DNA from: Candidatus Nomurabacteria bacterium RIFCSPHIGHO2_12_FULL_42_19
GTDB lineage: Bacteria > Patescibacteriota > Minisyncoccia > Phycocordibacterales > UBA9973
Assembly (NCBI GenBank): GCA_001786955.1
Contig: MFUM01000009.1
Span: 552 to 64,551 of the forward strand
Length of the DNA: 64,000 bases
Reading direction: 5' to 3'
Made by a program: the position numbers and the translations under genes. Below the pieces are notes generated by a model. It did not search any database. It saw only the letters and a program-made list of their open reading frames with translations, and was not told where the DNA came from. This document shows positions 10,513 to 42,433 of the stretch, piece by piece. Position 1 is the stretch's first letter. Each line of letters opens with the position of its first letter.

Positions 10513-10637
10513 ATATTATATATATTTATCTACATAATAATGTATTCGACCCCCTCCCTTGGAGAGTTTAACCTGCTTTGGTGATGTAATTATACCATTT
10601 TGCGGTTTTTTCAAAAAACAAATAAGGCTCAAAAAAA

Positions 10638-10663
10638 ACAGCCCCCGAGAGGGTTGTTTTTTT
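10638..10663. terminator. Bidirectional terminator-like hairpin
   Basis: acagccc-ccgaga-gggttgt stem with an A-run before it and a T-run after it. Confidence 0.5.
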
Positions 10664-10891
10664 GCAATAATCTCCGAAATTTATTTTCCTATTTACAAGT
10701 GCACGGGTCATTGCCGCAAACAGGGCATTTTGGCTCGTCCATATTCTTTGATAAATAAATAATAATTGTATTGACAGACATGTCGACTAAAACGTGCCTG
10801 TCGTACTTCTATACTATAGCAAAAAAGAAATATTTAATCTAATTTTCGTTTTGTGCGCGTATCGCGTAGTTTTTATTTTATAAGAACGAAG

Positions 10892-10966
10892 TGGTGACCC
10901 TACTGGGAATCGCACCCAGATTACCAGCTTGAAAAGCTGATGTCCTAACTATTAGACGATAGGGCC
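10892..10966 (-). tRNA. tRNA-Glu (anticodon TTC), CCA encoded
   Basis: Reverse complement is GGCCCTATCGTCTAATAGTTAGGACATCAGCTTTTCAAGCTGGTAATCTGGGTGCGATTCCCAGTAGGGTCACCA. The anticodon loop is TTTTCAA and the T loop is TGCGATT. Confidence 0.85.
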
Positions 10967-10989
10967 AATGCAAGATATAATAACATTTT

Positions 10990-11583: not shown

Positions 11584-11593
11584 TCATATTTTT

Positions 11594-12985
11594 ATGGAAA
11601 ATAAAAACACGCATAGGGATATATGGATCGTGGCATTGGCTATAATTTCTTTCGCCTTGTGGAAACTTTCTTCACTGCAATTCAGGTTCGGCGATGAAAA
11701 CGTCTATTTCTATATGTCGGACGCCATTTTGCGTGGATTTATCCCATATAAGGATTTTTTCTTCGCCGACCCTCCGTTTTTCATATATATGATGGCAATT
11801 TTCAAGGCTATTTTCGGTTCGCATATTATTCTCTTCAAAACTCTCCCGATATTATTTGACAGCCTGTCCGCAATTTTAATTTATCTCCTGCTCCGGAAGA
11901 ATAATATTTTTGCGGCGCTCGGCCCCATTTTTTATCTTTTCTCTTTTACCATCCTTTCCACTTCGGATTATGTCACCGGCGCGGAAGTGATGATGTTTTT
12001 CATTCTTCTGGCTCTCTATTCCGACCAAAACAAAAAACATTTCTGGTCCGGAGCATTTTGGGCGCTCGCCTGCCTTTCCAAATTATATGCCGGACCGGCT
12101 TTGCTCGGTTTTTTGTTCTATAAACTCATTTCCAAAGAATTTTTGCCTGCTAGAAATATCATCTTGGGAGGGCTGGCCGCTACTATCGTAATATTGTTGC
12201 CATTTTTTATCTTAGCCCCGCATCAAGTCTTTTATGATTTAATCATTCATCAGTTCAACCGGCCGACCGGCATCAATAAATGGAATATTTTAAGCGTCTT
12301 CGCTCGGTTTGAATGGCTGCTTATAATCTCAAGCCTTCTCGGGATGTTTATCGCCAAAAATAAATCGTGGATTTATCCGTTGATTTTTTCCGCCGTATTT
12401 TTTTTATTATATAAAGACCTTTATTATTTATACCTGCATCTTTTATTGCCGTTTATTATATTTCTGGCGGTTGAATTCGCGGCATTTCTGAATAAAAAAC
12501 GGGAGGAAATTGCCTGGGCATTTATTGTATTTTACATTTTCGTTTCCTTCTATTCAATTTCCGGATATGTGAATACTTACGGGCCGCAGGGAATTTTTAA
12601 CCAGCCGGAAGAAATTGCGGAAGCTTTAAAAACCGCCCCGGAAGATTTCCCGGCCTATGGCGCGCAGGAAATAGCTCCGCTTGTCGCCCTGATGTCCGGC
12701 AGGAAAATTTTCGGCAATGTTATAGACACCAATACGCAAAACTTTGCCGCCGAGACGCAAAATCTTGATTTAATATCCGAAAAAGCGACGAAAAACGGCA
12801 TATACCTTGTTGCGCGCGTGGCAAATTATCCGGAACAAAATATGCAGGACACCGGTTTTGAAGGCTATTTTAATAAAAAAATATTTGACAGCTCGTGCAA
12901 ATTTTATAAATCTTTTGACAGAAATTCCCCGGGCGACCCCTTGAACCAGGTGACAATTTATAAATGTTATAAAACAGCCGACTAA
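11594..12985 (+). CDS. Integral-membrane GT-C glycosyltransferase (PMT/ArnT-like, family 39-like)
   Basis: 463 aa, multi-pass, with a DE motif in the first loop (RFGDENVYFY) and a soluble C-terminal domain. Confidence 0.55.
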   Translation: MENKNTHRDIWIVALAIISFALWKLSSLQFRFGDENVYFYMSDAILRGFIPYKDFFFADPPFFIYMMAIFKAIFGSHIILFKTLPILFDSLSAILIYLLLRKNNIFAALGPIFYLFSFTILSTSDYVTGAEVMMFFILLALYSDQNKKHFWSGAFWALACLSKLYAGPALLGFLFYKLISKEFLPARNIILGGLAATIVILLPFFILAPHQVFYDLIIHQFNRPTGINKWNILSVFARFEWLLIISSLLGMFIAKNKSWIYPLIFSAVFFLLYKDLYYLYLHLLLPFIIFLAVEFAAFLNKKREEIAWAFIVFYIFVSFYSISGYVNTYGPQGIFNQPEEIAEALKTAPEDFPAYGAQEIAPLVALMSGRKIFGNVIDTNTQNFAAETQNLDLISEKATKNGIYLVARVANYPEQNMQDTGFEGYFNKKIFDSSCKFYKSFDRNSPGDPLNQVTIYKCYKTAD

Positions 12986-13023
12986 AAATTGATAATGCCG
13001 CTTTAATTCTATATACTGCAGAC

Positions 13024-13785
13024 ATGATTCAAAAAAATAAAATCAAAATAATAATCCTAGCCGCCGGAAAAAGCGCCAGAATGAAAATGGACGAGCCGAA
13101 AGCGCTCGCAATGCTTAAAAACAAGCCATTTTTGCGGCATATTCTTGATACTATTAAAAAACTGGATTCCGGAATAAAACCAATTATTGTCGTAGGCCAT
13201 AAAAAAGAACGCATCAAAGAAGTGCTGGGAAACGAACATATTTACGCGGAACAGAGCGAACAGCTTGGCACCGGACACGCGGTTATGTCCGCCAGAAAAG
13301 CAATTAATGATAATCCCGAAATAATCCTTGTCATTTCGGCCGACCAGCCGCTAATTTCCAAAGAAACGATTGAAGGCATAATTTCCGTTCACGCGGAAAA
13401 GAATCCAACTATGACGATAGCTACAGTCCTGGTGCCTGACTTTGAAGATTGGAGAACCGGGTTGAATCACTTCGGCAGGATAATTCGCGGAACCGATAAT
13501 CTGGTCAAAAAAATCGTCGAGTTCAAGGATGCGAACGATGAAGAGAAAAAAATCAAAGAGTTGAATCTCGCTTTGTATGCATTCGACGCAGAATGGCTTT
13601 GGGATAATATTAATAAGATTAAAAATAAAAATGCGCAGGCCGAATATTATCTGACAGATCTTATCAAGATGGCATGCGACCAGCAGAAAAAGATTGAAGC
13701 CGTGCCGGTGGTAAATATCATAGAAGCATTGCAGCCAAATTCAAAAGAAGAACTTGAAATATTAGAGAAATTAGCAGTAGAATAG
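13024..13785 (+). CDS. Sugar-1-phosphate nucleotidyltransferase (GlmU N-terminal-like, no acetyltransferase domain)
   Basis: IIILAAGKSARMKMDEPKALAML resembles the GlmU/RmlA G-x-G-T-R-M motif. 253 aa. Confidence 0.7.
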   Translation: MIQKNKIKIIILAAGKSARMKMDEPKALAMLKNKPFLRHILDTIKKLDSGIKPIIVVGHKKERIKEVLGNEHIYAEQSEQLGTGHAVMSARKAINDNPEIILVISADQPLISKETIEGIISVHAEKNPTMTIATVLVPDFEDWRTGLNHFGRIIRGTDNLVKKIVEFKDANDEEKKIKELNLALYAFDAEWLWDNINKIKNKNAQAEYYLTDLIKMACDQQKKIEAVPVVNIIEALQPNSKEELEILEKLAVE

Positions 13786-13786
13786 A

Positions 13787-15010
13787 ATGATGCAAAATCC
13801 CTATCAAAACGCCATGGCGCAGTTGGACAAAGTTGCTAAGATTATAAATTTTGGCGACGAGTTTATCGCCCGCCTCCGCCAACCCGACCGGGACATCAGA
13901 ATTTCAATTCCGGTTAAAATGGACAATGGCTCTCAAAAAATTTTTGAAGGATATAGGGTGGAATATAATAATGCCCTGGGGCCCTATAAAGGCGGAATCA
14001 GATACCATTCCGATACCGAGATAAACGAAGTGAAAGCGTTGGCTTTCTGGATGGCGCTTAAATGCGCGGTCGCCGGCATTCCGATGGGCGGAGGCAAAGG
14101 CGGGATAACCGTTGACCCGAAAGAATTGTCTAAGAATGAACTGGAAAGGCTTTCGCGCGGGTGGGTGCAAAAGCTCGCAGATGTGTTGGGCCCGCATAAA
14201 GATATCCCCGCGCCGGATGTGAATACCACGCCCGAGATAATGGCTTGGATGGCGGATGAATATAAAAAATTAACGGGCGAAGAAAATGGAGCGACCTTTA
14301 CCGGCAAGCCGCTCGACAAGGGCGGTTCGGCGGGCCGAGGCTCGGCTACGGGCCTCGGCGGATTTTATGTTTTTGACTCATTGAGAGCGCAAATCGGGCT
14401 TCCAGAAAAATGCAGAGTCGCAATTCAGGGTTTCGGCAATGTCGGCGGAAATGCCGCGCGTATTTTTGCTGAAAACGGACATACGGTAATGGCCGTTTCT
14501 GATTCAAAAAGCGCGATTGTAAAAGATAGCGGGCTGGATTTGAATGAAGTTGAAGTTCATAAGAAAAAAACCGGAAGCTTGAAAGATTTTCCCGGCGCTG
14601 AAAATATAACAAATGCCGAACTTTTAGAACTTTCCTGCGACCTTCTGGTGCCGGCCGCGTTTGAAAACGTGATAACTGGCATTAATGCGGAAAAAATCAA
14701 AGCTAAGGCCATCCTGGAGCTTGCCAATGGCCCGATAAATCCGGAGGCTGATGAGATTTTATTCAAAAAAGGTGTTCCTGTTGTGCCGGATATTTTGGCA
14801 AATTCCGGAGGCGTAACAGTATCTTATTTTGAATGGGACCAGAATTTAAAGAACGAGCATTGGAGTGAAAAAGAAGTTTTTGACAAATTAAAACCAATGA
14901 TGAATGACGCCGCTCAAAAAATATTTAAAAAATCCCAAGAAACAAAAACATACCTGCGCATGGGCGCTTTCATCCTGGCGCTTGAAAAAATCAAGGAAAA
15001 AATGCAATAG
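13787..15010 (+). CDS. gdhA: Glutamate dehydrogenase (Glu/Leu/Phe/Val dehydrogenase family)
   Basis: GPYKGGIRYH...GIPMGGGKGG catalytic Lys box and the NAD(P) Rossmann motif GFGNVGG. Confidence 0.9.
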   Translation: MMQNPYQNAMAQLDKVAKIINFGDEFIARLRQPDRDIRISIPVKMDNGSQKIFEGYRVEYNNALGPYKGGIRYHSDTEINEVKALAFWMALKCAVAGIPMGGGKGGITVDPKELSKNELERLSRGWVQKLADVLGPHKDIPAPDVNTTPEIMAWMADEYKKLTGEENGATFTGKPLDKGGSAGRGSATGLGGFYVFDSLRAQIGLPEKCRVAIQGFGNVGGNAARIFAENGHTVMAVSDSKSAIVKDSGLDLNEVEVHKKKTGSLKDFPGAENITNAELLELSCDLLVPAAFENVITGINAEKIKAKAILELANGPINPEADEILFKKGVPVVPDILANSGGVTVSYFEWDQNLKNEHWSEKEVFDKLKPMMNDAAQKIFKKSQETKTYLRMGAFILALEKIKEKMQ

Positions 15011-15021
15011 TCAGATATTAA

Positions 15022-15062
15022 ATAGCGAAAATACTAAGAACTCTGCGATAGCAGAAAGTTTA
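15022..15062. repeat. 40-nt palindromic repeat (copy 1) between the gdhA stop and the Cas2-like stop
   Basis: aatactaagaactctgcgatagcagaaagtttagtaatt has an outer stem tactaa/ttagta and an inner stem tctgc/gcaga. A direct-repeat partner lies at 15581-15621. Confidence 0.65.
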
Positions 15063-15076
15063 GTAATTTTCATGGT

Positions 15077-15436
15077 TCACTTTTTAAAATCGTACTCTTT
15101 TGCCAACTTGAAAATCTTGAAACCGTTTTTTATTTTTATCTTTTCAATGTAGTCTAGAAATTCTTTAGGTAACGGAGATGGTCCAACCCATACACTTTTT
15201 TGAATCATAGAATAATTAAATTTTTTCAAATGCCAGCGGAGCCATTCCCTTTCGGCTTTTTTAGTTTCCGGAATATCGAACATCACTATTAGATTTTTGG
15301 GAGCGTTTTGGTCAAATTTGAAATGAAATTGTTTTAAAGAATCTATTTTCTTTTTTATATATTTTTGACCTTTAAGAGTTATCATCAGCCCCGCATCACT
15401 ATGTTCTATAAAACCAGTTTTACGAATGTAGGACAA
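15077..15436 (-). CDS. Orphan Cas2-like protein (Cas2/VapD-fold C-terminal region with a roughly 45-aa N-terminal extension)
   Basis: The C-terminal segment LIVMFDIPETKKAEREWLRWHLKKFNYSMIQKSVWVG matches the Cas2 pattern hydrophobic strand-D-I-...-RR-LRR-L-K-...-G-x-x-Q-SVF. No cas1 or CRISPR array is present in the window. Confidence 0.35.
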   Translation of the reverse strand: MSYIRKTGFIEHSDAGLMITLKGQKYIKKKIDSLKQFHFKFDQNAPKNLIVMFDIPETKKAEREWLRWHLKKFNYSMIQKSVWVGPSPLPKEFLDYIEKIKIKNGFKIFKLAKEYDFKK

Positions 15437-15580
15437 AGTTCCGCTTAAACAATTCTAAGAATAATTTTTGAATTTTGGAATACCAAAAAGATTCACACGG
15501 CTTCCTTTATATCTCAAAGACGTGGCACTTAACTCTTTTAAAATTTCATAAACAAGGCTCACGAGTTATATTATATCACA

Positions 15581-15621
15581 AATACTAATAAATCTGCGAT
15601 AGCAGAGTTATTAGTAAATAA
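15581..15621. repeat. 40-nt palindromic repeat (copy 2) upstream of the Cas2-like gene and of tRNA-Val
   Basis: aatactaataaatctgcgatagcagagttattagtaaat has the same core ctgcgatagcaga and the same tactaa/ttagta arms as copy 1. Confidence 0.65.
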
Positions 15622-15694
15622 TAGTTTGTTAATTAAAACATTATTTTCCTGTACTTATTTGAAAAATTAATGGAAAATGCTATAAATAAACAAT

Positions 15695-15767
15695 GGGCGG
15701 TTAGCTCAGTTGGTAGAGCGTGTCTTTGACGTAGACAAGGCCACAGGTCCGAATCCTGTACCGCCCA
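15695..15767 (+). tRNA. tRNA-Val (anticodon GAC)
   Basis: GGGCGGTTAGCTCAGTTGGTAGAGCG-TGTCT-TTGACGT-AGACA-AGGCC-ACAGG-TCCGAAT-CCTGT-ACCGCCC-A. It ends 1 nt before the tsaD ATG. Confidence 0.85.
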
Positions 15768-15768
15768 C

Positions 15769-16845
15769 ATGAGAATTTTAAGCATTGAAACATCCTGCGA
15801 CGACACGGGGATAAGCATAATGGAGGCAAAAGGGGGCGTTCTAAACGCTTCTTTTAAAATCCTGGCAAATAATTCAAATTCACAAATAAAAATCCACATT
15901 CCTTATGGCGGAGTTTATCCGGCATTGGCCAAAAGAGAACATAATAAAAATTTGCCGATTCTTCTGGAAAAAACATTAAAAGAAGCGAAATTAAAAAATA
16001 GAAAATCTCCCGTGGATTTGATTGTCGTCACTCACGGACCGGGGCTGGAAATCGCGCTTTGGACAGGCATTGTTTTCGCCAAAGAATTGGCAAAAAAATG
16101 GAATGTTCCTTTGATGCCCGTAAATCATATGGAGGGGCATATATTTTCAGTATTTGGAAAACAAAAAGGTGAATTTTTAATACCTAAAATAAAGTTCCCT
16201 GCTCTTTCTTTGCTGGTTTCCGGAGGACATACGGAATTGGTTTTGATGAAAAATTTTATGCAATATAAAATCATAGGCGAAACTCTGGATGATGCTGTCG
16301 GGGAAACATTTGACAAGGTCGCAAGAATGCTCGGCCTTCTCTATCCCGGCGGGCCGGAGATTTCCAAACTGGCCGAATTTCTACGGCGAAAAGAAAAACA
16401 AGCTTCGGAGATTAGTTTTTCGGTAACTCTCCCCCGCCCTATGCTTTATTCTAAAAACTTTGATTTCTCTTTTTCGGGACTTAAAACCGCTGTTCTATAT
16501 TTGATCAGAGACATTGGCAAACCGGATGAAAAGACAAAAGCGCAAATTGCCCTGGAATTTGAAAACGCGGTTATTGAATGTCTCGTTCACAAGACAGCCA
16601 AAGCCGTTGAAAAACACGGGATTAAAACTTTAATTGTTGCCGGCGGAGTTGCCGCCAACAAACATCTAAGAAATGAAGTGAAAAAACTTGAAGATAAAAA
16701 AATAAAATTATTTTTTCCGATTAAAGAACTTTCAACTGACAATTCTATCATGATTGGTATAGCTGGATATTTTAACTATATCAAAAACAAAAAGAAAACT
16801 CTAAAAGCAGGCAACATCAAAGCAACTGGCAATCTAAGGCTTTAA
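15769..16845 (+). CDS. tsaD: tRNA N6-adenosine threonylcarbamoyltransferase TsaD (Kae1/Gcp)
   Basis: N-terminus MRILSIETSCDDTGISIM and an ASKH-fold metal site (HMEGH). Confidence 0.9.
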   Translation: MRILSIETSCDDTGISIMEAKGGVLNASFKILANNSNSQIKIHIPYGGVYPALAKREHNKNLPILLEKTLKEAKLKNRKSPVDLIVVTHGPGLEIALWTGIVFAKELAKKWNVPLMPVNHMEGHIFSVFGKQKGEFLIPKIKFPALSLLVSGGHTELVLMKNFMQYKIIGETLDDAVGETFDKVARMLGLLYPGGPEISKLAEFLRRKEKQASEISFSVTLPRPMLYSKNFDFSFSGLKTAVLYLIRDIGKPDEKTKAQIALEFENAVIECLVHKTAKAVEKHGIKTLIVAGGVAANKHLRNEVKKLEDKKIKLFFPIKELSTDNSIMIGIAGYFNYIKNKKKTLKAGNIKATGNLRL

Positions 16846-16866
16846 TATGATATTATTTGAGGATGG

Positions 16867-16947
16867 ATCCCGTTAGAGATAACGAGATACATGTTTTGAG
16901 GTTTAAAATAATAACTATAATAAAATTATGAAAATCTCTAACGGGAT
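16867..16947 (+). promoter_or_regulatory. valS leader hairpin pairing the 5' UTR with codons 3-7
   Basis: atcccgttagagat (16867-16880) is the exact reverse complement of atctctaacgggat (16934-16947). The GAGG Shine-Dalgarno and the ATG fall in the loop. Confidence 0.45.
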
Positions 16948-19072
16948 GGAAGACAAACTGCTCAAGCCTTATGACCCGAAAACAACCGAAGAAAGAATCT
17001 ATAAGCTTTGGGAAGAAAGTGGTTTTTTTAACCCGGATAATCTGCCCGGCGATAGAAAAAATCCGTTTACTATCATAATGCCTCCGGTAAATGCCAACGG
17101 CTCTCTGCACGCCGGACACGGTCTGGTAATGACTATTGAAGACATAATGGTGCGCTATAAGAGGATGCAGGGGTTTAAAACGCTTTGGCTTCCGGGCTTA
17201 GATCATGCCGGTTTTGAAACTCAAGTGGTCTATGAAAAAAAACTTGAAAAAGAAGGACGCACGAGATTCGAGATGGACCCAAAGGAACTTTACAAAGAAA
17301 TTTTGGATTTCACTCTTGTCAATTCAAAAAATATAAAATCCCAAATAAGAAAAATGGGGGCATCATGCGACTGGTCTCGGGAAAAATTTACTCTGGATGA
17401 AAATGTGGTAAAAGCCGTTTACCAAACATTTAAAAGAATGTATGAAGATGGTTTGGTATACCGGGGAAATAGAATCATCAGCTGGTGTTCAAAACATCAA
17501 ACTTCTTTTTCGGACTTGGAAATCACAGACGAGGAGCGTACGGATAGTTTTTATTATTTAAAATACGGGCCTTTTACTATCGCAACTTCCCGTCCGGAAA
17601 CAAAATTCGGAGACAAATATGTGGTAATGCATCCGGACGACAAGCGTTATCAGAATTATACCGATGGACAAAAAATAAAACTGGAATGGATAAACGGGCC
17701 GATAGAAGCTACGGTGATAAAAGACAAAATGATTGATATGGAATTCGGCACAGGGGTAATGACCATCACTCCCTGGCACGATACAGCTGACTTTGAAATT
17801 GCCGAAAGGCATAAATTAGATAAAGAGCAAATAATTGACGAAAATGGAAAACTTCTTCCGATTGCAGGAGAATTCGCAGGTCAGCATATAAAAAAGGCCA
17901 GACCGTCAATTATTGAAAAACTTCAAAAAAAGGGCTTGGTAGTTAAGATAGATGAAAATTACAAGCATGTTGTCCGAACATGCTATAAATGCGGAACCGT
18001 TATAGAACCCCAAATAAAAAGCCAGTGGTTTGTGAAAATGAAGCCTCTAGCGGAAAAAGCATTAGAGAAAATAAATAATGGGGAGATTAATTATATTCCG
18101 GAACATTATAAAAAAATTACGACATATTGGCTCGATAACATTATGGATTGGAATATTTCCAGACAAATCGTCTGGGGTATTTCTATTCCGGCAAAAATCT
18201 GCATAGAATGCAAGCATGGCATGGTGGATTTGGAAAATAATATTTCAAAATGCACCAAATGCGGTGGAAGAATAATCCAAGACAGCGACACCTTTGACAC
18301 ATGGTTTTCATCCGGACAGTGGCCTTTTATCACTCTTGGCTATCCGGATAATAACGACTTTAAAACATTTTATCCCACAGATGTTATGGAAACCGGAGGT
18401 GATATTATTTTTTTCTGGGTTGCCCGGATGATTATGCTTGGATTTTATATTACAGGGGAAATCCCTTTCAAGACAGTCTATCTGCATGGAATGGTCCTTG
18501 ATGCCAAAAGCCAGAAAATGAGCAAGAGTAAGGGAAATGTAATTGACCCACTCATTCTTACGGAACAATTCGGTACGGATGCTTTCAGGATGGGAGTGGT
18601 CGTCGGTAACACCGTGGGAACATCTTTAGCGCTTTCTCCCGATAAAATCAGAGGATATAAAAACTTTGCGAATAAAATTTGGAATGCCGCCCGTTTTGTT
18701 TTAGACAACACAAAAGATTATACGATTCCCGAAAATCCCAAGTATGATGAAGAAGATGCCAAGTCGAATAAAGAACTGAAGGAGTTAATGAAAGAAATCA
18801 CGAAAGAAATGGACGAATATAAATTCTATCTCGTCGCGGAAAAACTTTATCATTATTTCTGGCACACTTTCGCCGATATTATTATAGAAAGGTCAAAGAA
18901 GAAAATCTTGAAAAACAAAAATGCCGATTCGGCTAAAGCTTTGCTCTTTACACACTTGATTACCCTTCTAAAAGTTCTACATCCATTTATCCCCTTCGTC
19001 ACGGAAGAAATTTGGTCGATGATGCCTGGAAAAAATAAAAACCTATTAATGATTGAAAAATGGCCTTCTTAG
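16928..19072 (+). CDS. valS: Valyl-tRNA synthetase (compact form lacking the C-terminal coiled coil)
   Basis: Class I motifs PPVNANGSLHAGH (HIGH variant) and KMSKSKGN, plus GLDHAGFETQ typical of ValRS. 714 aa. Confidence 0.8.
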   Translation: MKISNGMEDKLLKPYDPKTTEERIYKLWEESGFFNPDNLPGDRKNPFTIIMPPVNANGSLHAGHGLVMTIEDIMVRYKRMQGFKTLWLPGLDHAGFETQVVYEKKLEKEGRTRFEMDPKELYKEILDFTLVNSKNIKSQIRKMGASCDWSREKFTLDENVVKAVYQTFKRMYEDGLVYRGNRIISWCSKHQTSFSDLEITDEERTDSFYYLKYGPFTIATSRPETKFGDKYVVMHPDDKRYQNYTDGQKIKLEWINGPIEATVIKDKMIDMEFGTGVMTITPWHDTADFEIAERHKLDKEQIIDENGKLLPIAGEFAGQHIKKARPSIIEKLQKKGLVVKIDENYKHVVRTCYKCGTVIEPQIKSQWFVKMKPLAEKALEKINNGEINYIPEHYKKITTYWLDNIMDWNISRQIVWGISIPAKICIECKHGMVDLENNISKCTKCGGRIIQDSDTFDTWFSSGQWPFITLGYPDNNDFKTFYPTDVMETGGDIIFFWVARMIMLGFYITGEIPFKTVYLHGMVLDAKSQKMSKSKGNVIDPLILTEQFGTDAFRMGVVVGNTVGTSLALSPDKIRGYKNFANKIWNAARFVLDNTKDYTIPENPKYDEEDAKSNKELKELMKEITKEMDEYKFYLVAEKLYHYFWHTFADIIIERSKKKILKNKNADSAKALLFTHLITLLKVLHPFIPFVTEEIWSMMPGKNKNLLMIEKWPS

Positions 19073-19758
19073 CAAACGATCCAAAAATCCTAGGCTTGGC
19101 GTTTTTGGGCGGAATTATTCCTTCTCTTTTGTGGCTATGGTTTTGGTTAAAAGAAGACGAAGAAAACCCCGAACCGAAAGGATTGCTCGCTTTAGTGTTT
19201 GTGATGGGTATGCTGGCTGTTGTGGTCGTCTTGCCGGTCCAAAAATTCATACAAGCCCATATAGGCTCATCCGAAGGCCAGCTGGTCCTCTGGGCCGGCG
19301 CGGAAGAAATATTGAAATATCTCGCCGTACTAATCATTCTCTTCAAGACAAATCATGCCAATGAACCCATAGATTGGCCGATTTATCTCATTACCGCGGC
19401 TCTAGGTTTTGCCGCATTGGAAAACTCCCTGTTCTTGATTAAGCCGCTTTCAGTAAGCGGGGCAACGGTAGGCCTGCTTACGGGCCAGCTCAGGTTTCTC
19501 GGGTCTACCCTTCTCCATACTGTTTCAAGCGGAACGATAGGCATTACTATAGGAATTTCGTTCTATATGGACGAATTTAGGAGAAAATGGTTTCTTTTTG
19601 TCGGTTTTTTGGTCGCTATTGCCTTGCATAGCGCCTTTAATTTTTTTATAATAAGGAATGACGGAAATGACTTTTTGAAAGTATTCGCGTTTTTGTGGGT
19701 CGTCACGATTATCGTTATGCTGCTTTTTGAAAAAGTGAGAAGGATGAGTACAAATTAA
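19060..19758 (+). CDS. PrsW-family intramembrane protease
   Basis: Multi-pass protein with EExxK (AGAEEILKY) and conserved His pairs (LLHTVSSG, ALHSAFNF). Confidence 0.65.
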   Translation: MAFLANDPKILGLAFLGGIIPSLLWLWFWLKEDEENPEPKGLLALVFVMGMLAVVVVLPVQKFIQAHIGSSEGQLVLWAGAEEILKYLAVLIILFKTNHANEPIDWPIYLITAALGFAALENSLFLIKPLSVSGATVGLLTGQLRFLGSTLLHTVSSGTIGITIGISFYMDEFRRKWFLFVGFLVAIALHSAFNFFIIRNDGNDFLKVFAFLWVVTIIVMLLFEKVRRMSTN

Positions 19759-19784
19759 AAGTTAATCGTTGCTTAAGAAAAATT

Positions 19785-20273
19785 ATGGAAAATAAAAAAA
19801 GAAGTTTTTTTGAAAGATTGACCGGAAGCATGAGTATGGAGGAAGAAAATTTAGAACCGAAAAAGGAGCATCTGATAAAAGGGGTCAAGTCGGAAAACGG
19901 AGATAAGAAAAATGGCAATCATTGGATTGAAGAGGAAAATGATGAGGCAGAATTGTCGGTTGATGTTTATCAGACGCCTACTGATATCATCATTCAGACA
20001 ATGGTTGCCGGAGTCAAGCCGGAGGATTTGGAATTATCGATTGCCCGGGATATGATTACCATTCGCGGACAGCGCGAGGAAAGCAGGACTATCGATGAAG
20101 ATAATTACTTTACAAAAGAGCTTTATTGGGGAAGATTTTCCCGCACTATATCACTCCCGGCGGAAGTGGAGCCGGAAGAAGTTGAAGCGACCGAAAAACA
20201 CGGCCTTCTAACTATCAAGCTTCAAAAAGTGGACAAAGAAAAGAAAAACAGTGTCCGGGTCAGGTCAATCTAG
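19785..20273 (+). CDS. Small heat-shock protein, Hsp20/alpha-crystallin family
   Basis: The alpha-crystallin domain VDVYQT...ITIRGQRE...GRFSRTISLPA and a C-terminal IxI-like motif. Confidence 0.85.
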   Translation: MENKKRSFFERLTGSMSMEEENLEPKKEHLIKGVKSENGDKKNGNHWIEEENDEAELSVDVYQTPTDIIIQTMVAGVKPEDLELSIARDMITIRGQREESRTIDEDNYFTKELYWGRFSRTISLPAEVEPEEVEATEKHGLLTIKLQKVDKEKKNSVRVRSI

Positions 20274-21517
20274 AAAGACCGGTTCGTGTTTTTTATCTCA
20301 ACTTTTTTAAGATAGAATATCCCAACAGTAGTAAAAATAGCCATAAACATTACGGCAATTCTATAACGTATTGGACCAAGGCCAATAAAAAGTGAAGTTA
20401 TCAAGCCCCATGACAACGGCCCGACGAGCGTTGAAATACGCTCGGCCAGAGTGTAAAAACTGAAACCAAAATTTAGTTTTTCTTTCGGACACAATGCCGT
20501 CATTGCTGCTCGTGACACCGTCCAGGTTGCACCAAAGAAAAAGCCCATCATAATAGATAAAATTATAAAAACAACAAAGTTGGAAATTATGCCCATAAGT
20601 GGAAATATTACTACCCAACTTCCAAGAATTATCATGAGAGCTTTTTTAAGACCAATTTTATCCGCCAGCCAACCGGTGAAAAATGCACCAATAGCTGAAG
20701 TAGCTAATATACCTATAAGAAGCATTGCTTTTGTACTATCAGAAACACCAAAAACTCTCTGCATGTATATGGAAAAATTATTTTGAGTTGTTATAATTGC
20801 ATCATTAAAAAAGAAAAAGGAAAGAAGGAATAGTCTTATATTTGGTTCTTTTATAAGTTCTTTAAACTGACCCCAGAAATTCTTATACTCTTCTTTCAAG
20901 CTAATTTTATTATAAGCTACTTCCGGTTTTGGTAATTTGAAAAACAAAAGCATTGGTATTGAGAGAATAAAAAATATAATAGTGGCTGGAAGAAATGTCT
21001 GTGCGCGACCAGCTTCACCAACAAGGTAGACTGCACCACTGGCAAGCGGTAGAGTTATTAAAAGTCCAGTAATTTGCCCTAGCCAATTTCCAGTTTGACC
21101 GATACCCGATATTCTTCCCCACCTTTCCGGTGGAGCAATATGATGTAAAAGCGCATTATAAAAAACAAAAGAAAACTGATAAAGATAGTTTGCGATTATA
21201 AAAAACAGGACTGCTAAAAATACTTGATGGGAAAAAAAGAGAGTTATAAATGACACGCCAAGAAAAGACAGGAAGGTCAAAACCGTAATCCAATTAAGAT
21301 AGTTTTGCTGTTTTCCATTTTTATCGGCAATACTTCCTAGAATTGGAGCGGTCAAAAGAAGCAAAATAGAACCAATTGTAAAAATCATATTATACCAAAA
21401 ATCAGAAACTCCCCTATCCACGACTAACCATTGCGAGAAATATAAAAAAAAGACAATAGTAGTTATTGAATTTGCAAAATCATAGAGAGCCCAAAAGAAA
21501 ATATTTTTCTTATTCAT
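20270..21517 (-). CDS. MFS transporter
   Basis: 415 aa with roughly 12 predicted TM segments and the MFS-like loop motif GSIADKNGK. Confidence 0.7.
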   Translation of the reverse strand: MNKKNIFFWALYDFANSITTIVFFLYFSQWLVVDRGVSDFWYNMIFTIGSILLLLTAPILGSIADKNGKQQNYLNWITVLTFLSFLGVSFITLFFSHQVFLAVLFFIIANYLYQFSFVFYNALLHHIAPPERWGRISGIGQTGNWLGQITGLLITLPLASGAVYLVGEAGRAQTFLPATIIFFILSIPMLLFFKLPKPEVAYNKISLKEEYKNFWGQFKELIKEPNIRLFLLSFFFFNDAIITTQNNFSIYMQRVFGVSDSTKAMLLIGILATSAIGAFFTGWLADKIGLKKALMIILGSWVVIFPLMGIISNFVVFIILSIMMGFFFGATWTVSRAAMTALCPKEKLNFGFSFYTLAERISTLVGPLSWGLITSLFIGLGPIRYRIAVMFMAIFTTVGIFYLKKVEIKNTNRSF

Positions 21518-21522
21518 TTTTG

Positions 21523-21594
21523 TGCCTGGGGGCAGAATCGCACTGCCGACCTATCCCTCTTCAGGGGAGAGCTCTACTACTGAGCTACCCAGGC
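21523..21594 (-). tRNA. tRNA-Phe (anticodon GAA)
   Basis: Reverse complement is GCCTGGG-TA-GCTC-AGTAGTA-GAGC-T-CTCCC-CTGAAGA-GGGAT-AGGTC-GGCAG-TGCGATT-CTGCC-CCCAGGC-A. Confidence 0.85.
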
Positions 21595-21615
21595 ATGGTT
21601 ATTTAATAAACAACT

Positions 21616-21697
21616 ATGCCTGGGTATTTATATACCGAATGAGTCCCGACGCATTTAGGTCGGGAAGCCGACTGAAACGTCGGCTCTACCCAGGCAT
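21616..21697 (+). repeat. Family-1 double-hairpin element copy A, enclosed by an 11-bp inverted repeat that copies the tRNA-Phe 5' end
   Basis: atgcctgggta (21616-21626) and tacccaggcat (21687-21697) flank hairpin 1 tcccgac-gcatttag-gtcggga (21644-21665) and hairpin 2 agccgac-tgaaac-gtcggct (21666-21685). Confidence 0.75.
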
Positions 21698-21957
21698 CAC
21701 GATTTTATCTTGATAAAACCGTCTTTAATTATACTAGCAATATAATCATGTCTTTTCAACTTTTTTAGCTTAAATTCAATACTTCTAGCTTCTTTTAAGG
21801 TTTGATATTTTTGAGAAAAAATTAGTTTTAGTTTCCCTAATCTTTTAGTTGAAGGGGTATAGCCACCTAAATGGTGTTGCATTCTATCGTCCAAATCAAC
21901 AGTGCTACCTATGTAATACTTTCCATCTTCATTTTGTAATATATAAACAAATGCCAT
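21697..21957 (-). CDS. GIY-YIG nuclease, YhbQ/UPF0213-like small protein
   Basis: FVYILQNEDGKYYIGSTVDLDDRMQHH gives the GIY...YIG motif plus the Arg/His catalytic region. 86 aa. Confidence 0.75.
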   Translation of the reverse strand: MAFVYILQNEDGKYYIGSTVDLDDRMQHHLGGYTPSTKRLGKLKLIFSQKYQTLKEARSIEFKLKKLKRHDYIASIIKDGFIKIKS

Positions 21958-21966
21958 AAAACTGAG

Positions 21967-22020
21967 TCCCGACGCCCTTTGGGGTCGGGAGGCCGACCTA
22001 GCGTCGGCCCTACCCAGGCA
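21967..22020 (+). repeat. Family-1 double-hairpin element copy B, ending in a third copy of the tRNA-Phe 5'-end 11-mer
   Basis: tcccgac-gccctttgggg-tcggga, then ggccgac-ctagc-gtcggcc, then ctacccaggca. Outer pairs covary relative to copy A (a-t changed to g-c). Confidence 0.75.
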
Positions 22021-22025
22021 ATTAC

Positions 22026-22271
22026 CTATTGGTTAAGCTGTCTAAAATTATTGAGCATATCGCCTGCCCCGCTATATACGCCTACTAACTGTTCCAAATA
22101 CGGCTGGATAAAATAATATGCGCCGATTGCGGAGCCGATTATAAACGCCCAATACAAGAAACTCATAATGCGCGACAGGCGCATAGAGCGATGCAACGAA
22201 CGCAACATACCGTTATTTTCTTCGGCCAGTTTGAAAGTGGCCTCAAGCAACTTCTTGGATTCAGGATCCAT
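22026..22271 (-). CDS. Hypothetical small membrane protein
   Basis: 81 aa with one hydrophobic helix (IMSFLYWAFIIGSAIGAYYFI). Confidence 0.3.
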   Translation of the reverse strand: MDPESKKLLEATFKLAEENNGMLRSLHRSMRLSRIMSFLYWAFIIGSAIGAYYFIQPYLEQLVGVYSGAGDMLNNFRQLNQ

Positions 22272-22338
22272 GAGTATAATTTAACATAAAATTTTAGAAA
22301 ATAAAAGAGATATTATTGCTCCTGGTGCAGAGTAATTA

Positions 22339-22539
22339 TTATCTTATCCTTTCCATAATCTTATTAAGCCAATATCTATATTCTCCTTGCTCAATCCATT
22401 TATTTTTCAAAGCCTCGGCTAAATTTGGCACATCATAAGTTCCTTTTTCTAATGAATCTAGAAATGCCTCCTTGGCCTGTTCTTCTGGGCTAAGGGTTCT
22501 TTGGTCCGGGCTTGGTTCCATTTGTGATTTCCCATTCAT
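22339..22539 (-). CDS. Hypothetical small protein
   Basis: 66-aa ORF with no recognisable motif. Confidence 0.25.
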   Translation of the reverse strand: MNGKSQMEPSPDQRTLSPEEQAKEAFLDSLEKGTYDVPNLAEALKNKWIEQGEYRYWLNKIMERIR

Positions 22540-22582
22540 GGAAGTATTTTATCACATTTTTTTAAAAAAATCAATAAACGTG

Positions 22583-22654
22583 TGCCCTCGGCAGGAATTG
22601 AACCTACATCTATTCCTTAGGACGGAACTGTTCTATCCGTTGAACTACGAGGGC
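22583..22654 (-). tRNA. tRNA-Arg (anticodon CCT)
   Basis: Reverse complement is GCCCTCG-TA-GTTC-AACGGATA-GAAC-A-GTTCC-GTCCTAA-GGAAT-AGAT-GTAGG-TTCAATT-CCTGC-CGAGGGC-A. Confidence 0.8.
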
Positions 22655-22684
22655 ATATGGGAGCAATAATATATTAAGAATAGA

Positions 22685-22918
22685 TTAAAGTCCAAGCAGT
22701 TTAGCTATTTTCGGCCTGTCAAAACCGACAATAATTTCATTGCCGATGATTATGACCGGTACGCCCATCTGTCCGCTTTTTTCCATCATTTCTTTTCTTT
22801 TCTCAAGATCGCTGGCAACATTATGTTCCGTATAAGCGACATTGTTTGCCTTAAAAAAATCTTTGGCCATGTGACAAAAGTGGCAGGTTGGGGTCGAATA
22901 AATGGTTACGTTTTGCAT
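22685..22918 (-). CDS. Glutaredoxin-like protein (NrdH/YruB-like)
   Basis: 77 aa with a CxxC active site (TCHFCH) and a GVPVIIIGN thioredoxin-fold motif. Confidence 0.7.
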   Translation of the reverse strand: MQNVTIYSTPTCHFCHMAKDFFKANNVAYTEHNVASDLEKRKEMMEKSGQMGVPVIIIGNEIIVGFDRPKIAKLLGL

Positions 22919-22998
22919 AATTTTGAAAAATTAATTATTAATGAGTTTGCATTATAGCATACTTGCCCAAAAGGTAAAATAAAGTTATATTTTTTAGA

Positions 22999-23073
22999 TG
23001 CGAGTATGGTCTAGTGGTAGAATGCGACCTTCCCAAGGTTGAGACGGGGGTTCGATTCCCCCTACTCGCACCA
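22999..23073 (+). tRNA. tRNA-Gly (anticodon CCC), CCA encoded
   Basis: GCGAGTA...anticodon stem CGACC/GGTTG with loop TTCCCAA, T arm GGGGG-TTCGATT-CCCCC, acceptor TACTCGC-A-CCA. The D stem is weak. Confidence 0.7.
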
Positions 23074-28007: not shown

Positions 28008-28565
28008 TTAAGGAAAAGTTTTATTTATTTTATCATAACCAAGTTCTATTGCACGATTGACGGACTTCCTCAAAAAGTATCTCCAGTGGTCACGGTCTTC
28101 GTTCCTGGTGTGGGACTCCCAATTGGACAAAATTTCTTCCGGAGTCGCCCAAGCCAAGGTAAATTTTTCATGCTCTTCGAGTCTGGTCGGTATTAAATTA
28201 TTGCTTTTAAGTATCACTAGAAAACAGGTGGCATCCGCGATACGGTCTACGTTTTTTAAAGTATTGTGAAAATGACACAAGGCCTCAGCTATTTTTTCAA
28301 CATGCAAAAAATCATGCAAACCGCTCTCTTCGGTAATTTCTCTTAAGACCCCGTTTTTTATATCTTCTTCGGAACTTACACCTCCTCCAAAAAGACCAAA
28401 TTTACCATCATCTTGCTTCTTGCTAACGGCATATTTTTGTGTTTGTGGGTCAAAAATAACCCCGCATCCACCGTCTCTCCGTTCTTCATTTTTTCTCTTA
28501 ATTCCAAATTCCGGAATATTACTCGAATCATTCATATAATGATTTATAGTTTTCTTAATATACAA
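28008..28565 (-). CDS. NUDIX hydrolase
   Basis: Nudix box GGGVSSEEDIKNGVLREITEESG. Confidence 0.7.
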   Translation of the reverse strand: MYIKKTINHYMNDSSNIPEFGIKRKNEERRDGGCGVIFDPQTQKYAVSKKQDDGKFGLFGGGVSSEEDIKNGVLREITEESGLHDFLHVEKIAEALCHFHNTLKNVDRIADATCFLVILKSNNLIPTRLEEHEKFTLAWATPEEILSNWESHTRNEDRDHWRYFLRKSVNRAIELGYDKINKTFP

Positions 28566-39439: not shown

Positions 39440-42433
39440 CTAAACAACTATGTTGATAAGTTTGTCCTTCACATAAACCACCTTTTTTACGTGTTTCCCG
39501 GCTATTTGTTTCAAAATAGCTTCATTCTCAAGGGTTTTTTTCTTCACTATTTCTTCATTATCATCGGTTTGTATTATAATTTCGGTTCTGACTTTACCAT
39601 TTACTTGCACCACAATTTTTATTTCTTCGTCTTCTATCAAATCAGGAGACCACTCCGGCCAGCTGGAAAGATAAATAGTGTTTTTTTCGCCAAGCATATT
39701 CCACAACTCTTCCGCCACATGCGGCGCAAATGGCGCAAGAATTTGCAGAAATTTCTTGTAATCTTTCAAATCTAAAGTCGGACTTTTTTGAAGATCTAGA
39801 GCAAAGGCAGATTCCATCTTCGTCGCTAAAATCATCATACTGGAAATTGCAGTATTGAAATGCATCTCTTCAATGTCTTCTGAGACTTTTTTGATGGTTT
39901 TATGAAGAATTTTTTTTAATGAAAGAAAATCGGAAGAATTTTGAATGGTCTGGTTGAGACCGCTCTTATTTTGAACACTAGCGCGGGCGACCCGAGGACC
40001 TGAAAAATTTTTCTGATTTTCTGAAATTTTAATACCTAGTCTCCAAACCTTTTCAATAAACCTCCTGGCTCCGATAATGCTTTCTGTCGACCAGGCGACT
40101 GACTGGCTAAATGGCCCCATAAACATTTCATAGACCCGTAGCGTATCCGCGCCGTATGTTTTTACAATTTCGTCCGGATTAATCACATTCCCCAAGCTTT
40201 TGGACATCTTTACTCCCCCTTCACCCAAAATCATGCCATGCGAAGTGCGTTTTTTGTACGGCTCGGTCGTGGGCACTAATCCCAAGTCAAACAAGAATTT
40301 ATGCCAAAAACGTGAATATAAAAGATGGAGTGTTGTGTGTTCATTGCCCCCGTTATACCAATCCACCGGTGTCCAATATTTTAAATTTTTCTTGCTCGCA
40401 AATTCTTTATTGTTTTTCGAATCAGCATAACGAAGATAGTACCAGCTAGAACCTGCCCAGTTCGGCATCGTATCGGTTTCTCTTTTGGCTTTGCCTTTGC
40501 ATTTCGGACATTGGACATTAACCCATTTTGCAATATTGGCAAGCGGTGATTCTCCGCTCTCCGTTGGCTGATAATTTTTTACTTTTGGAAGCTTTACCGG
40601 TAAGTCCTTCTCCGGCACCGGAACCATTCCACAATCTTCACAATGAATTACCGGTATTGGCTCACCCCAGTATCGTTGCCTGGAAAAAACCCAATCGCGA
40701 AGCTTGAAAGTGGTTTTTTCTTTCCCCCCGACAAACTTTATGATTTCCTTTTTTGCTTTTTCAGAATCCATTCTGTCAAATTTACCAGAATTTACGAGCA
40801 ATCCTGACCCTACATATGCAATTTCTTTTATTTTGCCTAGAAAACCATTCCAAATTGAATCCCGTTCCGAAAGACTTAAAAAATCATATACTTCGTTTTT
40901 CTTCTTCCATAAAACATTGTGCTTTGCATTCTCCTCTGGAGAAATAGGTATCTGTTCCCCGTTTTGAAGTTCAAAATATAGATAACGAAACCGAGCGAGT
41001 ACGTTTGTTTTTTTCATCTGATGATAAAAATTAACAAACGAGAAACCGCCAACTTGTCGAATAAATTTTGTATTTGTGTACCCTGATTCTTCCCGAATTT
41101 CTCGTTTCCCTGTTTCAATAAAATCTTCCCCTTTTTCAATTCCGCCAGAAACCATTGAGCGAACGTCAATATGATTTTTCCATTGGATGCACAGATATTC
41201 ATCCTTATCCCAGTGTTTAACAATGCACATCACAGCATCACGGTCTACATACGGCATATCGTTGCGAACTATCTGTCCAGGTATAGGACTTTTAGAGACA
41301 GGCGCAACTACTTGGCGAATCGGCAAATCGTATTTTTTCGCAAATTCAAAATCTCTTTCGTCGTGCGCCGGCACAGCCATAATCGCTCCTGTGCCGTAAG
41401 ATGCAAGCACATAATCCGCTACCCAAACAGGAATCTCCTCCTTAGTCGCCGGGTTAACTGCTTTTACTCCCTTTAATTCAATACCTGTTTTTATTTTATC
41501 GGGAGCTGTCCTTTCGATTTCCGTCTTTTTTTTATTTGCTCCGATATATTGCAACACTTCGGCCCAATTTGAAATTCTAGATTTAACTTTGGAAATCAGT
41601 GTATGTTCAGGAGAAAGCACTAAATAAGTTGCTCCGAAGATAGTATCTGGACGAGTGGTAAAAACCTTAATTTTTTCAAGATTTGGTATATTTTCTTTCG
41701 CGCACGGGCAAAAACTGAATTCTATTTCCGCCCCCTCGCTCTTTCCTATCCAATTCCTCTGCGCGAGCTTTATTTGCGGCAGATAGTCTACGTCGTCTAA
41801 ATCTTTATCCAGCCTCTCGGCATATTTTGTAATCGCGAGCATCCATTGTTCTTTTTCCCTTTTCACGACCGGCGTCCCGCAGCGTTCGCAGTTTCCGCCG
41901 ACTACTTCTTCATTCGCCAGGCCAATTTTGCATGATGGACACCAATTAATAGCCATCTTGGCTTTATACGCCAGGCCTTTTTTAAAAAACTGCAAAAATA
42001 TCCATTGCGTCCATTTATAATATTTGGGGTCAGTGGTATTCACTTCCCGAGACCAATCAAAGGAGATACCAAGCGATTTTATTTGCTGGCGGAAATTATC
42101 GCTATTTTTTTTTGTGACAAAATGCGGGTCCTTGCCTGTTTTTATTGCGTAATTTTCCGTCGGTAAACCAAATGCATCCCAGCCGATTGGATAAAGCACA
42201 TTATAACCCTCCAATCTCCTTTTTCTAGATATTATATCCATGCCGATATACGGCCGCGGATGCCCGACGTGCAGCCCGTCGCCCGAAGGATACGGAAATT
42301 CAATCAGACTGTAATATTTAGGTTTCTTAGAAAAATCTTCGGCATGATAAATTCCGATCTTTTCCCATTCTCTCTGCCATTTTGTTTCCAGTTTTTTATG
42401 GTCGTATTCTTTCATGGTGGATTTATAATACAC
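39440..42433 (-). CDS. leuS: Leucyl-tRNA synthetase with an embedded Nudix-hydrolase domain
   Basis: HVGHP (HIGH), KMSKS, both zinc knuckles (CPSCK...CERCG and CEDCG...CPKCKG) and the editing-domain motifs TTRPDT and GTGAIMAVPAHD. About 155 extra residues sit between KYDLPIRQVV and GSGLLVNSGKFD and contain the Nudix box GGIEKGEDFIETGKREIREESGY. Confidence 0.9.
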   Translation of the reverse strand: MYYKSTMKEYDHKKLETKWQREWEKIGIYHAEDFSKKPKYYSLIEFPYPSGDGLHVGHPRPYIGMDIISRKRRLEGYNVLYPIGWDAFGLPTENYAIKTGKDPHFVTKKNSDNFRQQIKSLGISFDWSREVNTTDPKYYKWTQWIFLQFFKKGLAYKAKMAINWCPSCKIGLANEEVVGGNCERCGTPVVKREKEQWMLAITKYAERLDKDLDDVDYLPQIKLAQRNWIGKSEGAEIEFSFCPCAKENIPNLEKIKVFTTRPDTIFGATYLVLSPEHTLISKVKSRISNWAEVLQYIGANKKKTEIERTAPDKIKTGIELKGVKAVNPATKEEIPVWVADYVLASYGTGAIMAVPAHDERDFEFAKKYDLPIRQVVAPVSKSPIPGQIVRNDMPYVDRDAVMCIVKHWDKDEYLCIQWKNHIDVRSMVSGGIEKGEDFIETGKREIREESGYTNTKFIRQVGGFSFVNFYHQMKKTNVLARFRYLYFELQNGEQIPISPEENAKHNVLWKKKNEVYDFLSLSERDSIWNGFLGKIKEIAYVGSGLLVNSGKFDRMDSEKAKKEIIKFVGGKEKTTFKLRDWVFSRQRYWGEPIPVIHCEDCGMVPVPEKDLPVKLPKVKNYQPTESGESPLANIAKWVNVQCPKCKGKAKRETDTMPNWAGSSWYYLRYADSKNNKEFASKKNLKYWTPVDWYNGGNEHTTLHLLYSRFWHKFLFDLGLVPTTEPYKKRTSHGMILGEGGVKMSKSLGNVINPDEIVKTYGADTLRVYEMFMGPFSQSVAWSTESIIGARRFIEKVWRLGIKISENQKNFSGPRVARASVQNKSGLNQTIQNSSDFLSLKKILHKTIKKVSEDIEEMHFNTAISSMMILATKMESAFALDLQKSPTLDLKDYKKFLQILAPFAPHVAEELWNMLGEKNTIYLSSWPEWSPDLIEDEEIKIVVQVNGKVRTEIIIQTDDNEEIVKKKTLENEAILKQIAGKHVKKVVYVKDKLINIVV

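Follow-up and report, generated by a model that had tools for sequence, protein, structure and literature searches.

The leucyl-tRNA synthetase (LeuRS) encoded by a 64,000-nt stretch of Candidatus Nomurabacteria bacterium RIFCSPHIGHO2_12_FULL_42_19 (GCA_001786955.1, contig MFUM01000009.1, positions 552-64,551; hereafter the window) almost certainly harbors an intact Nudix domain nested in its connective polypeptide 1 (CP1) editing domain. The initial annotation of the window had pointed to a leuS open reading frame (ORF) of 997 codons with an insertion of about 155 residues in the editing region, at 40816-41281, and both elements are borne out here. The ORF, located at 39440-42433 on the minus strand, has an unbroken reading frame, and its product matches the bacterial LeuRS model TIGR00396 (leuS_bact) in two stretches, scoring 990 bits where the cut-off is 548. 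The ~160 additional residues of this protein (aa ~383-543) correspond to the Pfam NUDIX domain; aa 385-540 map to 41281-40814, within two bases of the interval first proposed. The profile search suggested at that time for delimiting the domain placed PF00293 at aa 400-504, above its gathering score of 21.1 both in the whole protein (33.6 bits, E 4.4e-8) and on the excised insert alone (37.4 bits, E 3e-9).

The Nudix module and its host synthetase

The PF13603 profile of the LeuRS editing domain is split after position 146 of its 185 positions and is followed by the NUDIX match, then by the remainder of the synthetase. The insert is framed by the LeuRS motifs AHDERDFEFAKKYDLPI (aa 356-372) and LLVNSGKFDRMD... 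(aa 545-565), and in an alignment to solved LeuRS structures its flanks correspond to residues 302-371 and 374-439 of Thermus thermophilus LeuRS, the module replacing the two residues 372-373 of that enzyme. The split profile and the structural alignment agree with the original placement of the insertion in CP1. The site (372/545 in the window protein, referred to as site B below) is the turn of a CP1 surface hairpin, past the helix that carries the editing aspartate (AHDxRD) and ahead of the strand that returns to the catalytic core. The features of the gene are as follows.

39440..42433, minus strand: leuS, bacterial-type leucyl-tRNA synthetase (ORF of 997 codons from GTG; TIGR00396)
42260..42271, minus strand: HIGH signature of the aminoacylation site (HVGH, aa 55-58; read from the sequence; H55, G57 and H58 invariant in 98 orthologues)
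41288..41758, minus strand: CP1 editing domain, part 1 (aa 226-382; PF13603 profile positions 1-146)
41642-41659, minus strand: threonine-rich TTRPDT motif of CP1 part 1 (aa 259-264)
41351-41368, minus strand: AHDERD motif of CP1 part 1 (aa 356-361)
40805..41308, minus strand: inserted Nudix module (aa 376-543; bounds from the subfamily profile, containing the 40816-41281 interval of the initial annotation)
40922..41236, minus strand: Pfam NUDIX match (aa 400-504; PF00293)
41078..41146, minus strand: Nudix box GGIEKGEDFIETGKREIREESGY (aa 430-452; exact fit to GX5EX7REUXEEXGU)
40679..40804, minus strand: CP1 editing domain, part 2 (aa 544-585; GLLVNSGKFD... to RDWVFSRQRYWG; second PF13603/TIGR00396 stretch)
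40196..40210, minus strand: KMSKS signature (aa 742-746; read from the sequence; K742, S744, K745 and S746 invariant and M743 nearly so in 98 orthologues)

AlphaFold2 modeled the full protein with a mean predicted local distance difference test score (pLDDT) of 82.4, reaching 93-97 over the insert and 78-95 at its junctions, and modeled the domain alone with a pLDDT of 94.9. The insert adopts the alpha/beta/alpha sandwich of the Nudix fold in these models; the intact Nudix box and the surrounding Nudix-fold strands that had been noticed at first are thereby retained, the box as an exact match and the strands as part of a confidently predicted fold. Judging from its sequence and models, the segment is an autonomously folding Nudix pyrophosphohydrolase domain that is probably catalytically active. 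Outside the Nudix core, it has an N-terminal extension of ~20 residues and motifs of its own, namely R398, WK, K474-x2-N-R and E501-x3-H-x3-W.

The host displays the defining features of bacterial LeuRSs, i.e. a TIGR00396 score above cut-off, the HIGH and KMSKS signatures and the CP1 post-transfer editing motifs, in which T259, T260, R261, T264, G347, T348, G349 (the GTG at aa 347-349), H357, D358, R360 and D361 are all invariant in the 98 orthologues. Because these functional signatures are conserved across the orthologues, the host is seemingly a fully functional LeuRS, and with all aminoacylation and editing signatures kept it looks like a normal LeuRS to which a third hydrolytic module is tethered. 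Canonical bacterial LeuRSs (T. thermophilus 1H3N/2BYT and Escherichia coli 4AQ7/4ARC) have in common with it the domain order, HIGH, KMSKS, the zinc-binding cysteine motifs and the threonine-rich and AHDxRD motifs; they differ by the ~160-residue module, which stands here in place of the two residues 372-373 in T. thermophilus. The true start of leuS is probably the ATG at 42415 (aa 7, MKEYDHKK), six codons past the GTG at 42433, since the orthologue consensus begins at MKEYDHKK, which would give a protein of 991 rather than 997 aa. A stretch of ~30 residues between the catalytic core and the anticodon-binding domain (NQKNFSGPRVARASVQNKSGLNQTIQNSSDF, LeuRS aa ~804-833, window 39935-40024) has a pLDDT <50 and is unconserved among orthologues; it is probably a disordered linker.

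Full-text literature searches combining LeuRS or aminoacyl-tRNA synthetase (aaRS) with Nudix, candidate phyla radiation (CPR)/Patescibacteria, insertion, fusion and diadenosine tetraphosphate (Ap4A) returned no description of a LeuRS-Nudix architecture, in line with the early impression that the fusion is undescribed for LeuRS. A 2017 survey of the Nudix clan leaves tRNA and synthetases unmentioned (PMC5389931). In a 2026 survey of ECOD insertions (PMC13114784), every recorded case of the PF13603 editing domain is an insert and none is a host, whereas PF13603 of the window LeuRS hosts a further domain. CP1 is usually seen as an inserted editing module and not as a host, and a nested, intact-looking Nudix domain is unusual. 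The sequences are already public with automatic Pfam labels; what is new is their recognition and interpretation, and a synthetase with an accessory catalytic domain is in itself a known concept. The isoleucyl-tRNA synthetase (IleRS) with a GNAT domain (NCBIfam NF040702) likewise pairs a synthetase with a second enzyme, the GNAT domain being appended whereas Nudix is nested in the editing domain. In animals, lysyl-tRNA synthetase (LysRS) is associated with NUDT2 and HINT, as in the LysRS-Ap4A-NUDT2 axis, but these partners are separate proteins.

Distribution, extra copies and gene contexts

The insertion is not confined to this genome. A full-protein search retrieved a near-identical 997-aa protein (P0001, listed at 100% identity) from an independent ENA contig, and 116 of the 120 closest LeuRS clusters (55-74% identity; NCBI, JGI, ENA and Logan), with source names Candidatus Nomurabacteria, Paceibacterota or Patescibacteria group, have 159-181 residues inserted at the identical place. 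A profile of 30 inserts (A2), searched against 1.84 billion cluster representatives, matched 170 clusters (50% identity) at E<=1e-30, the majority of which are LeuRSs or LeuRS fragments; more than 200 LeuRS clusters across Patescibacteria contain the insert. A scan for two narrow peptide patterns, derived from a 7-sequence alignment, in the species representatives of GTDB confirmed 221 loci, the domain lying within the leuS ORF in 76 of the best 80, and the locus titles comprise Paceibacterota, Parcubacteria, Nomura-, Kaiser-, Jorgensen-, Colwell-, Taylor- and Magasanikbacteria as well as Gracilibacteria. One LeuRS from Absconditicoccaceae also has the Nudix insert. Automated third-party annotation labels of some records (Saccharibacteria, Gammaproteobacteria, Clostridia, Woesearchaeota) are to be treated cautiously. 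The phyletic survey of CPR LeuRSs that the initial annotation had recommended therefore finds the insertion widespread in Patescibacteria. An assembly chimera or a frame error as the source of the extra length is ruled out for practical purposes, because the architecture is repeated in hundreds of independent assemblies (the >200 clusters from NCBI, JGI, ENA and Logan, besides the near-identical protein on a separate ENA contig), through an uninterrupted frame and junctions modeled at pLDDT 78-95.

P0001 differs from the window protein at LeuRS aa 535 (window 40829-40831), near the C-terminal end of the insert, where it has Cys instead of Phe (NGCLGKIK vs NGFLGKIK), a strain-level difference that leaves the architecture unaffected.

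The remaining four of the 120 closest clusters have only a loop of 8-35 residues at the insert site (8 residues in P0082). These insert-less LeuRSs are 68-74% identical to the window protein by BLASTP and 77-79% over aligned columns. Two of them whose contigs we read (P0082 and P0097) share the gene order of the window, i.e. a membrane-protein gene, leuS, then a gene of ~690 aa. The insert-less leuS of L007 is immediately preceded by a Nudix gene, one of another, MutT-like subfamily.

Other enzymes have entered related LeuRSs. In P0040, P0053, P0102, P0079, L027:1648-6324 and L082:1231-5904, further in-frame enzyme domains occupy CP1 or loops close to it (following window aa 246, 551 and 601); inserts of this kind include an alpha/beta or Ser hydrolase (PF06821/PF12697), a DUF559/MTES_1575 endonuclease-like domain and, in one related LeuRS, a Ham1/ITPase domain (PF01725). 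CP1 and its neighboring loops are evidently permissive landing sites in these lineages. The loop after aa 246 is also a second CP1 insertion point for the Nudix module itself, where extra copies, single or tandem and 55-65% identical to the site-B copies of other LeuRSs, raise the total to two or three in some LeuRSs. With these various inserts, the longest LeuRS ORFs reach ~1559 aa. P0121, P0122, L027 and L052 have two tandem copies after aa 246 plus one at site B, and P0285 has three tandem copies after aa 246. Among LeuRSs with two or three copies, most combine a copy with a canonical box and another with Gx5Q that lacks the box arginine.

The same Nudix subfamily was found between the anticodon-binding and C-terminal domains of an archaeal-type clade of prolyl-tRNA synthetases (ProRS; five clusters, P0252 and P0291-P0294; L013:2762-4693), the insert-less relatives of which are named Nanoarchaeota or Woesearchaeota, the nearest ones being DPANN-archaeal. 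With the LeuRS-insert profile, the Nudix domains of this clade reach 137-193 bits, and one of them is 39% identical to the window insert over 145 residues (E 2.8e-30). As read from these sequences, the ProRS insertion is independent of the LeuRS insertion, the hosts being a class II and a class I synthetase, respectively.

Stand-alone members of the subfamily are 154-206 aa long and display the motifs of the inserts. The contexts examined comprise the following.

Stand-alone gene, 2 bp upstream of a leuS that itself has the insert
Stand-alone gene (L011/L012), 3 bp upstream of a leuS without the insert
Stand-alone gene, 11 bp upstream of another leuS
Stand-alone gene, 12 bp downstream of argS, with an IleRS gene nearby
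Stand-alone gene, 49 bp upstream of thrS
Stand-alone gene, two genes upstream of the ProRS-Nudix gene (L013), with a P-loop kinase gene also just upstream
Stand-alone gene, directly after pth, with hisS nearby
Stand-alone gene, in a locus with metS and leuS
Stand-alone gene, 4 bp after fpg/mutM
Several stand-alone genes, in contexts without translation genes and without an aaRS neighbor

An aaRS gene is directly adjacent in 5 of the 14 contexts, a small and phylogenetically non-independent sample, compared to ~5% expected by chance (a rough estimate based on 20 aaRS genes per 800-1000 genes). The family as a whole numbers roughly 6,400 hits. Several stand-alone members are labeled 'MutT' by JGI automatic annotation.

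The window also contains a free-standing Nudix gene, which had been listed initially and which the profile search confirms.

28008..28565, minus strand: free-standing Nudix gene, 185 aa (PF00293, 31.6 bits)

An hhalign comparison aligned 138 columns of its product with the insert profile (probability 97.3, E 1.7e-11), hmmsearch gave 58.5 bits, and the product has the K..(N/D)R and EE..x..W motifs in common with the insert. On these profile matches, the gene product is a distant relative of the inserted subfamily, and the genome thus holds one fused version and a free, divergent one.

Catalytic residues and affinities of the subfamily

We counted residues in 203 LeuRS copies at site B.

E445: kept in 202/203
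E448: kept in 198/203
E449: kept in 203/203
R444: kept in 180/203
E436 (the Gx5E glutamate): kept in 176/203, with Gln in 21
R398 (subfamily-specific, outside the box): kept in 198/203
K474 (subfamily-specific, outside the box): kept in 200/203
N477 (subfamily-specific, outside the box): kept in 195/203
E501 (subfamily-specific, outside the box): kept in 189/203
H505 (subfamily-specific, outside the box): kept in 182/203
W509 (subfamily-specific, outside the box): kept in 199/203

The glutamates E445, E448 and E449 are thus kept in 97-100% of the inserts. Identity averages 43% per column for the inserts and 55% for the whole protein; the module is therefore faster-evolving than the synthetase core, with its catalytic motif under clear purifying selection. 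ApnA hydrolases, which act on dinucleoside polyphosphates, carry, in the loop that follows the Nudix box, a marker tyrosine stacking on adenine (PMC5389931). In the inserts, position 470, 18 residues past the box, is Tyr in 117/203 and Phe in 76/203 (aromatic in 95%) and is by its place in the sequence a candidate equivalent of Tyr87 of human NUDT2.

By sequence comparison, the insert belongs to a distinct Nudix subfamily outside every curated family: it misses every cut-off, e.g. scoring 22-24 bits with the RppH models, which require 116-118. Weak NCBIfam matches of the 30 inserts, ~90 bits under the cut-offs, are most often to RppH/NudH (28/30) and also to NudB, NudE, NudI and YtkD. Models of the MutT 8-oxo-(d)GTP diphosphatase (TIGR00586, PRK10776) match 6-12 of the 30 inserts, at E ~1e-4 in the best case; the copy in the window is not among these. 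Ap4A hydrolases in the PDB are matched at E 1e-2 to 1e-7, mainly across the Nudix box. The insert profile finds its best PDB sequence match in AvrM14 (E 6e-8) and the next in the Ap4A hydrolase of lupin, and the top Foldseek matches include RppH, NudC and oomycete decapping Nudix enzymes. The nearest characterized neighbors of the domain, as far as such matches can tell, lean towards ApnA hydrolases, RppH, DIPP-type and decapping Nudix enzymes.

Known Nudix (di)nucleoside polyphosphate hydrolases (Aquifex aq_158 3I7U, lupin 1F3Y, T. thermophilus Ndx1 1VC8, Mycobacterium tuberculosis Rv2985 9CXX and E. coli RppH/NudH) are 13-20% identical to the insert; they are free proteins, whereas the insert is embedded in another enzyme and has its own motifs and N-terminal extension. 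The flax-rust Nudix effectors AvrM14-A/B (8DP8/8DP9), matched over profile positions 21-156, are the best full-length profile-to-sequence match in the PDB and have in common with the insert a K-x-x-x-R strand motif and a downstream E...W, but they are secreted eukaryotic effectors that act on capped mRNA, and identity is low. The Enterococcus faecalis MutT/nudix protein 2AZW, 17% identical to the insert, is uninformative on substrate.

Candidate functions of the insert

Our leading hypothesis, to which we give a probability of about 0.4, is that the insert hydrolyzes ApnA-type by-products of the synthetase. E445, E448 and E449 would support Mg2+-dependent cleavage of a nucleoside-polyphosphate by-product of adenylation, the candidate substrates being the dinucleoside polyphosphates Ap4A, Ap3A and Ap4N, which may be cleared near the synthetase that makes them, perhaps in kinetic coupling to LeuRS. 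The aaRSs are a main source of Ap4A. We favor this role because it would explain the tie to several different aaRSs, because the nearest characterized neighbors are ApnA, RppH and DIPP-type enzymes, and because an aromatic residue falls in the region of the ApnA-hydrolase marker tyrosine. Cleavage of Ap4A and Ap3A in cis had been proposed from the start, and that proposal is still a plausible hypothesis, strengthened by the genomic associations: the subfamily is recurrently fused or adjacent to aaRS genes and has ApnA hydrolases as neighbors, but it lies outside the curated Ap4A-hydrolase and RppH families and is dispensable in relatives. The other activity proposed at the same time, cis hydrolysis of mis-activated adenylates or Leu-AMP, ranks low and is unlikely, as a mixed carboxylic-phosphoric anhydride is chemically atypical for a Nudix enzyme; hydrolysis of such adenylates is known for HIT-family enzymes. 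If Ap4A-type alarmones are the substrate, the window LeuRS would be the first enzyme to make and destroy them in one polypeptide, and it would open a direct experimental route to the question of why cells keep synthetase-derived ApnA under control.

Several observations weigh against this hypothesis. About 11% (~1/9) of the LeuRS copies have a weakened box with Gx5Q and no Arg (GQT...A/M-E..EE), and the window copy has Val at 478, a position taken by the subfamily Arg in 90% of copies (R478; K-x-x-N-R). The insert-less P0082 and P0097 have no adjacent Nudix gene. Since close relatives do without the insert or an adjacent Nudix gene, the insert is dispensable for LeuRS and there is no obligatory coupling. 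A strict Rosetta-stone rule, under which an insert-less leuS would always stand beside a Nudix gene, held in L011/L012 and failed for P0082 and P0097 (2/3 cases), and it was rejected. The Ham1/ITPase insertion points to general nucleotide house-cleaning, the stand-alone gene after fpg/mutM would suggest a MutT-like role, and several stand-alone genes have no aaRS neighbor. Membership in a curated family fails at every cut-off, and the best structural match, 2azw, is an uncharacterized protein.

A broader proposal, which we hold tentatively and at rather less than even odds, is that of a dedicated synthetase-associated Nudix family that would have co-evolved with aaRSs in ultra-small Patescibacteria and DPANN-like archaeal counterparts, and that would provide LeuRS with a third site, in cis, destroying ApnN, a cap or an adenylate analogue. 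The up-to-triple copies, the ProRS insertion and the aaRS-adjacent genes suggest an unrecognized partnership between synthetases and nucleotide-polyphosphate hydrolysis in minimal genomes. If true, synthetases would have a further, new layer of quality control or housekeeping, and the module would be the first domain found nested within CP1 in nature.

Alternatively, the insert could be a house-cleaning passenger, a general nucleotide-pool pyrophosphatase (MutT-, NudI- or NudB-like, acting on oxidized or non-canonical NTPs) chemically unlinked to leucylation, lodged in a permissive CP1 loop because organisms with small genomes load small enzymes onto big essential proteins that are expressed constitutively. 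We regard this as a serious rival, somewhat less probable than the leading hypothesis. The unrelated hydrolases found in CP1 and loops of related LeuRSs (alpha/beta or Ser hydrolase, DUF559 endonuclease, Ham1/ITPase, extra Nudix copies) are what a passenger would predict, as are an IleRS with a histidine phosphatase (His_Phos_1) insert and the loss of the module in close relatives with no adjacent replacement; the Ham1 domain and the fpg neighbor, 4 bp from a stand-alone member, suggest a fit to the house-cleaning theme, to which the JGI 'MutT' names and the weak NCBIfam matches to NudB, NudI and MutT also belong. Against a passenger stand the two independent insertions, in LeuRS (class I) and in the unrelated ProRS (class II), and the 5/14 stand-alone contexts adjoining an aaRS gene compared to the roughly estimated ~5%; the MutT models also match just 6-12 of 30 inserts, weakly. 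If the module is a passenger, Patescibacterial synthetases would be scaffolds that gather unrelated hydrolases (Nudix, Ham1, alpha/beta hydrolase, endonuclease-like and histidine phosphatase), which would be relevant to protein evolution in reduced genomes and to the engineering of permissive insertion sites.

An RppH-, NudC- or AvrM14-like action on the 5′ end of tRNA or of another synthetase-bound RNA, removing a 5′-triphosphate or an Np4A/NAD-type cap, is improbable. AvrM14, the best PDB sequence match, is an mRNA-decapping effector, RppH is the most frequent weak NCBIfam match (28/30 inserts), decapping enzymes and NudC rank with RppH among the top Foldseek matches, one stand-alone member stands beside pth and the host proteins all bind tRNA; but these matches are all far under family cut-offs, we found no RNA-binding extension in the insert, and the 5′ end of mature tRNA is as a rule a monophosphate.

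A non-catalytic module, i.e. a structural, regulatory or nucleotide-sensing CP1 appendage that has lost hydrolysis, is more improbable still. Non-enzymatic Nudix domains exist (PMC5389931), and both the minority of copies with Gx5Q and no box arginine and the V478 of the window copy would be in keeping with such a loss. The window copy nonetheless has an exact Nudix box, 97-100% of the 203 copies retain the metal-binding glutamates, and the stand-alone members keep the same residues. A role in anti-phage defense was dropped, PADLOC having returned no matches.

Among the tRNA genes of the window, no tRNA-Leu gene was found near leuS; six lie upstream at 9524-23073 (Ser-CGA, Glu-TTC, Val-GAC, Phe-GAA, Arg-CCT and Gly-CCC). 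The Patescibacterial IleRS with the inserted His_Phos_1 domain (L001:6386-9889, 1167 aa) is followed 1 bp downstream by a 141-aa Nudix gene (L001:9891-10316), the box region of which, WSFPKGHKEGEE..., resembles that of NUDT2-type Ap4A hydrolases.

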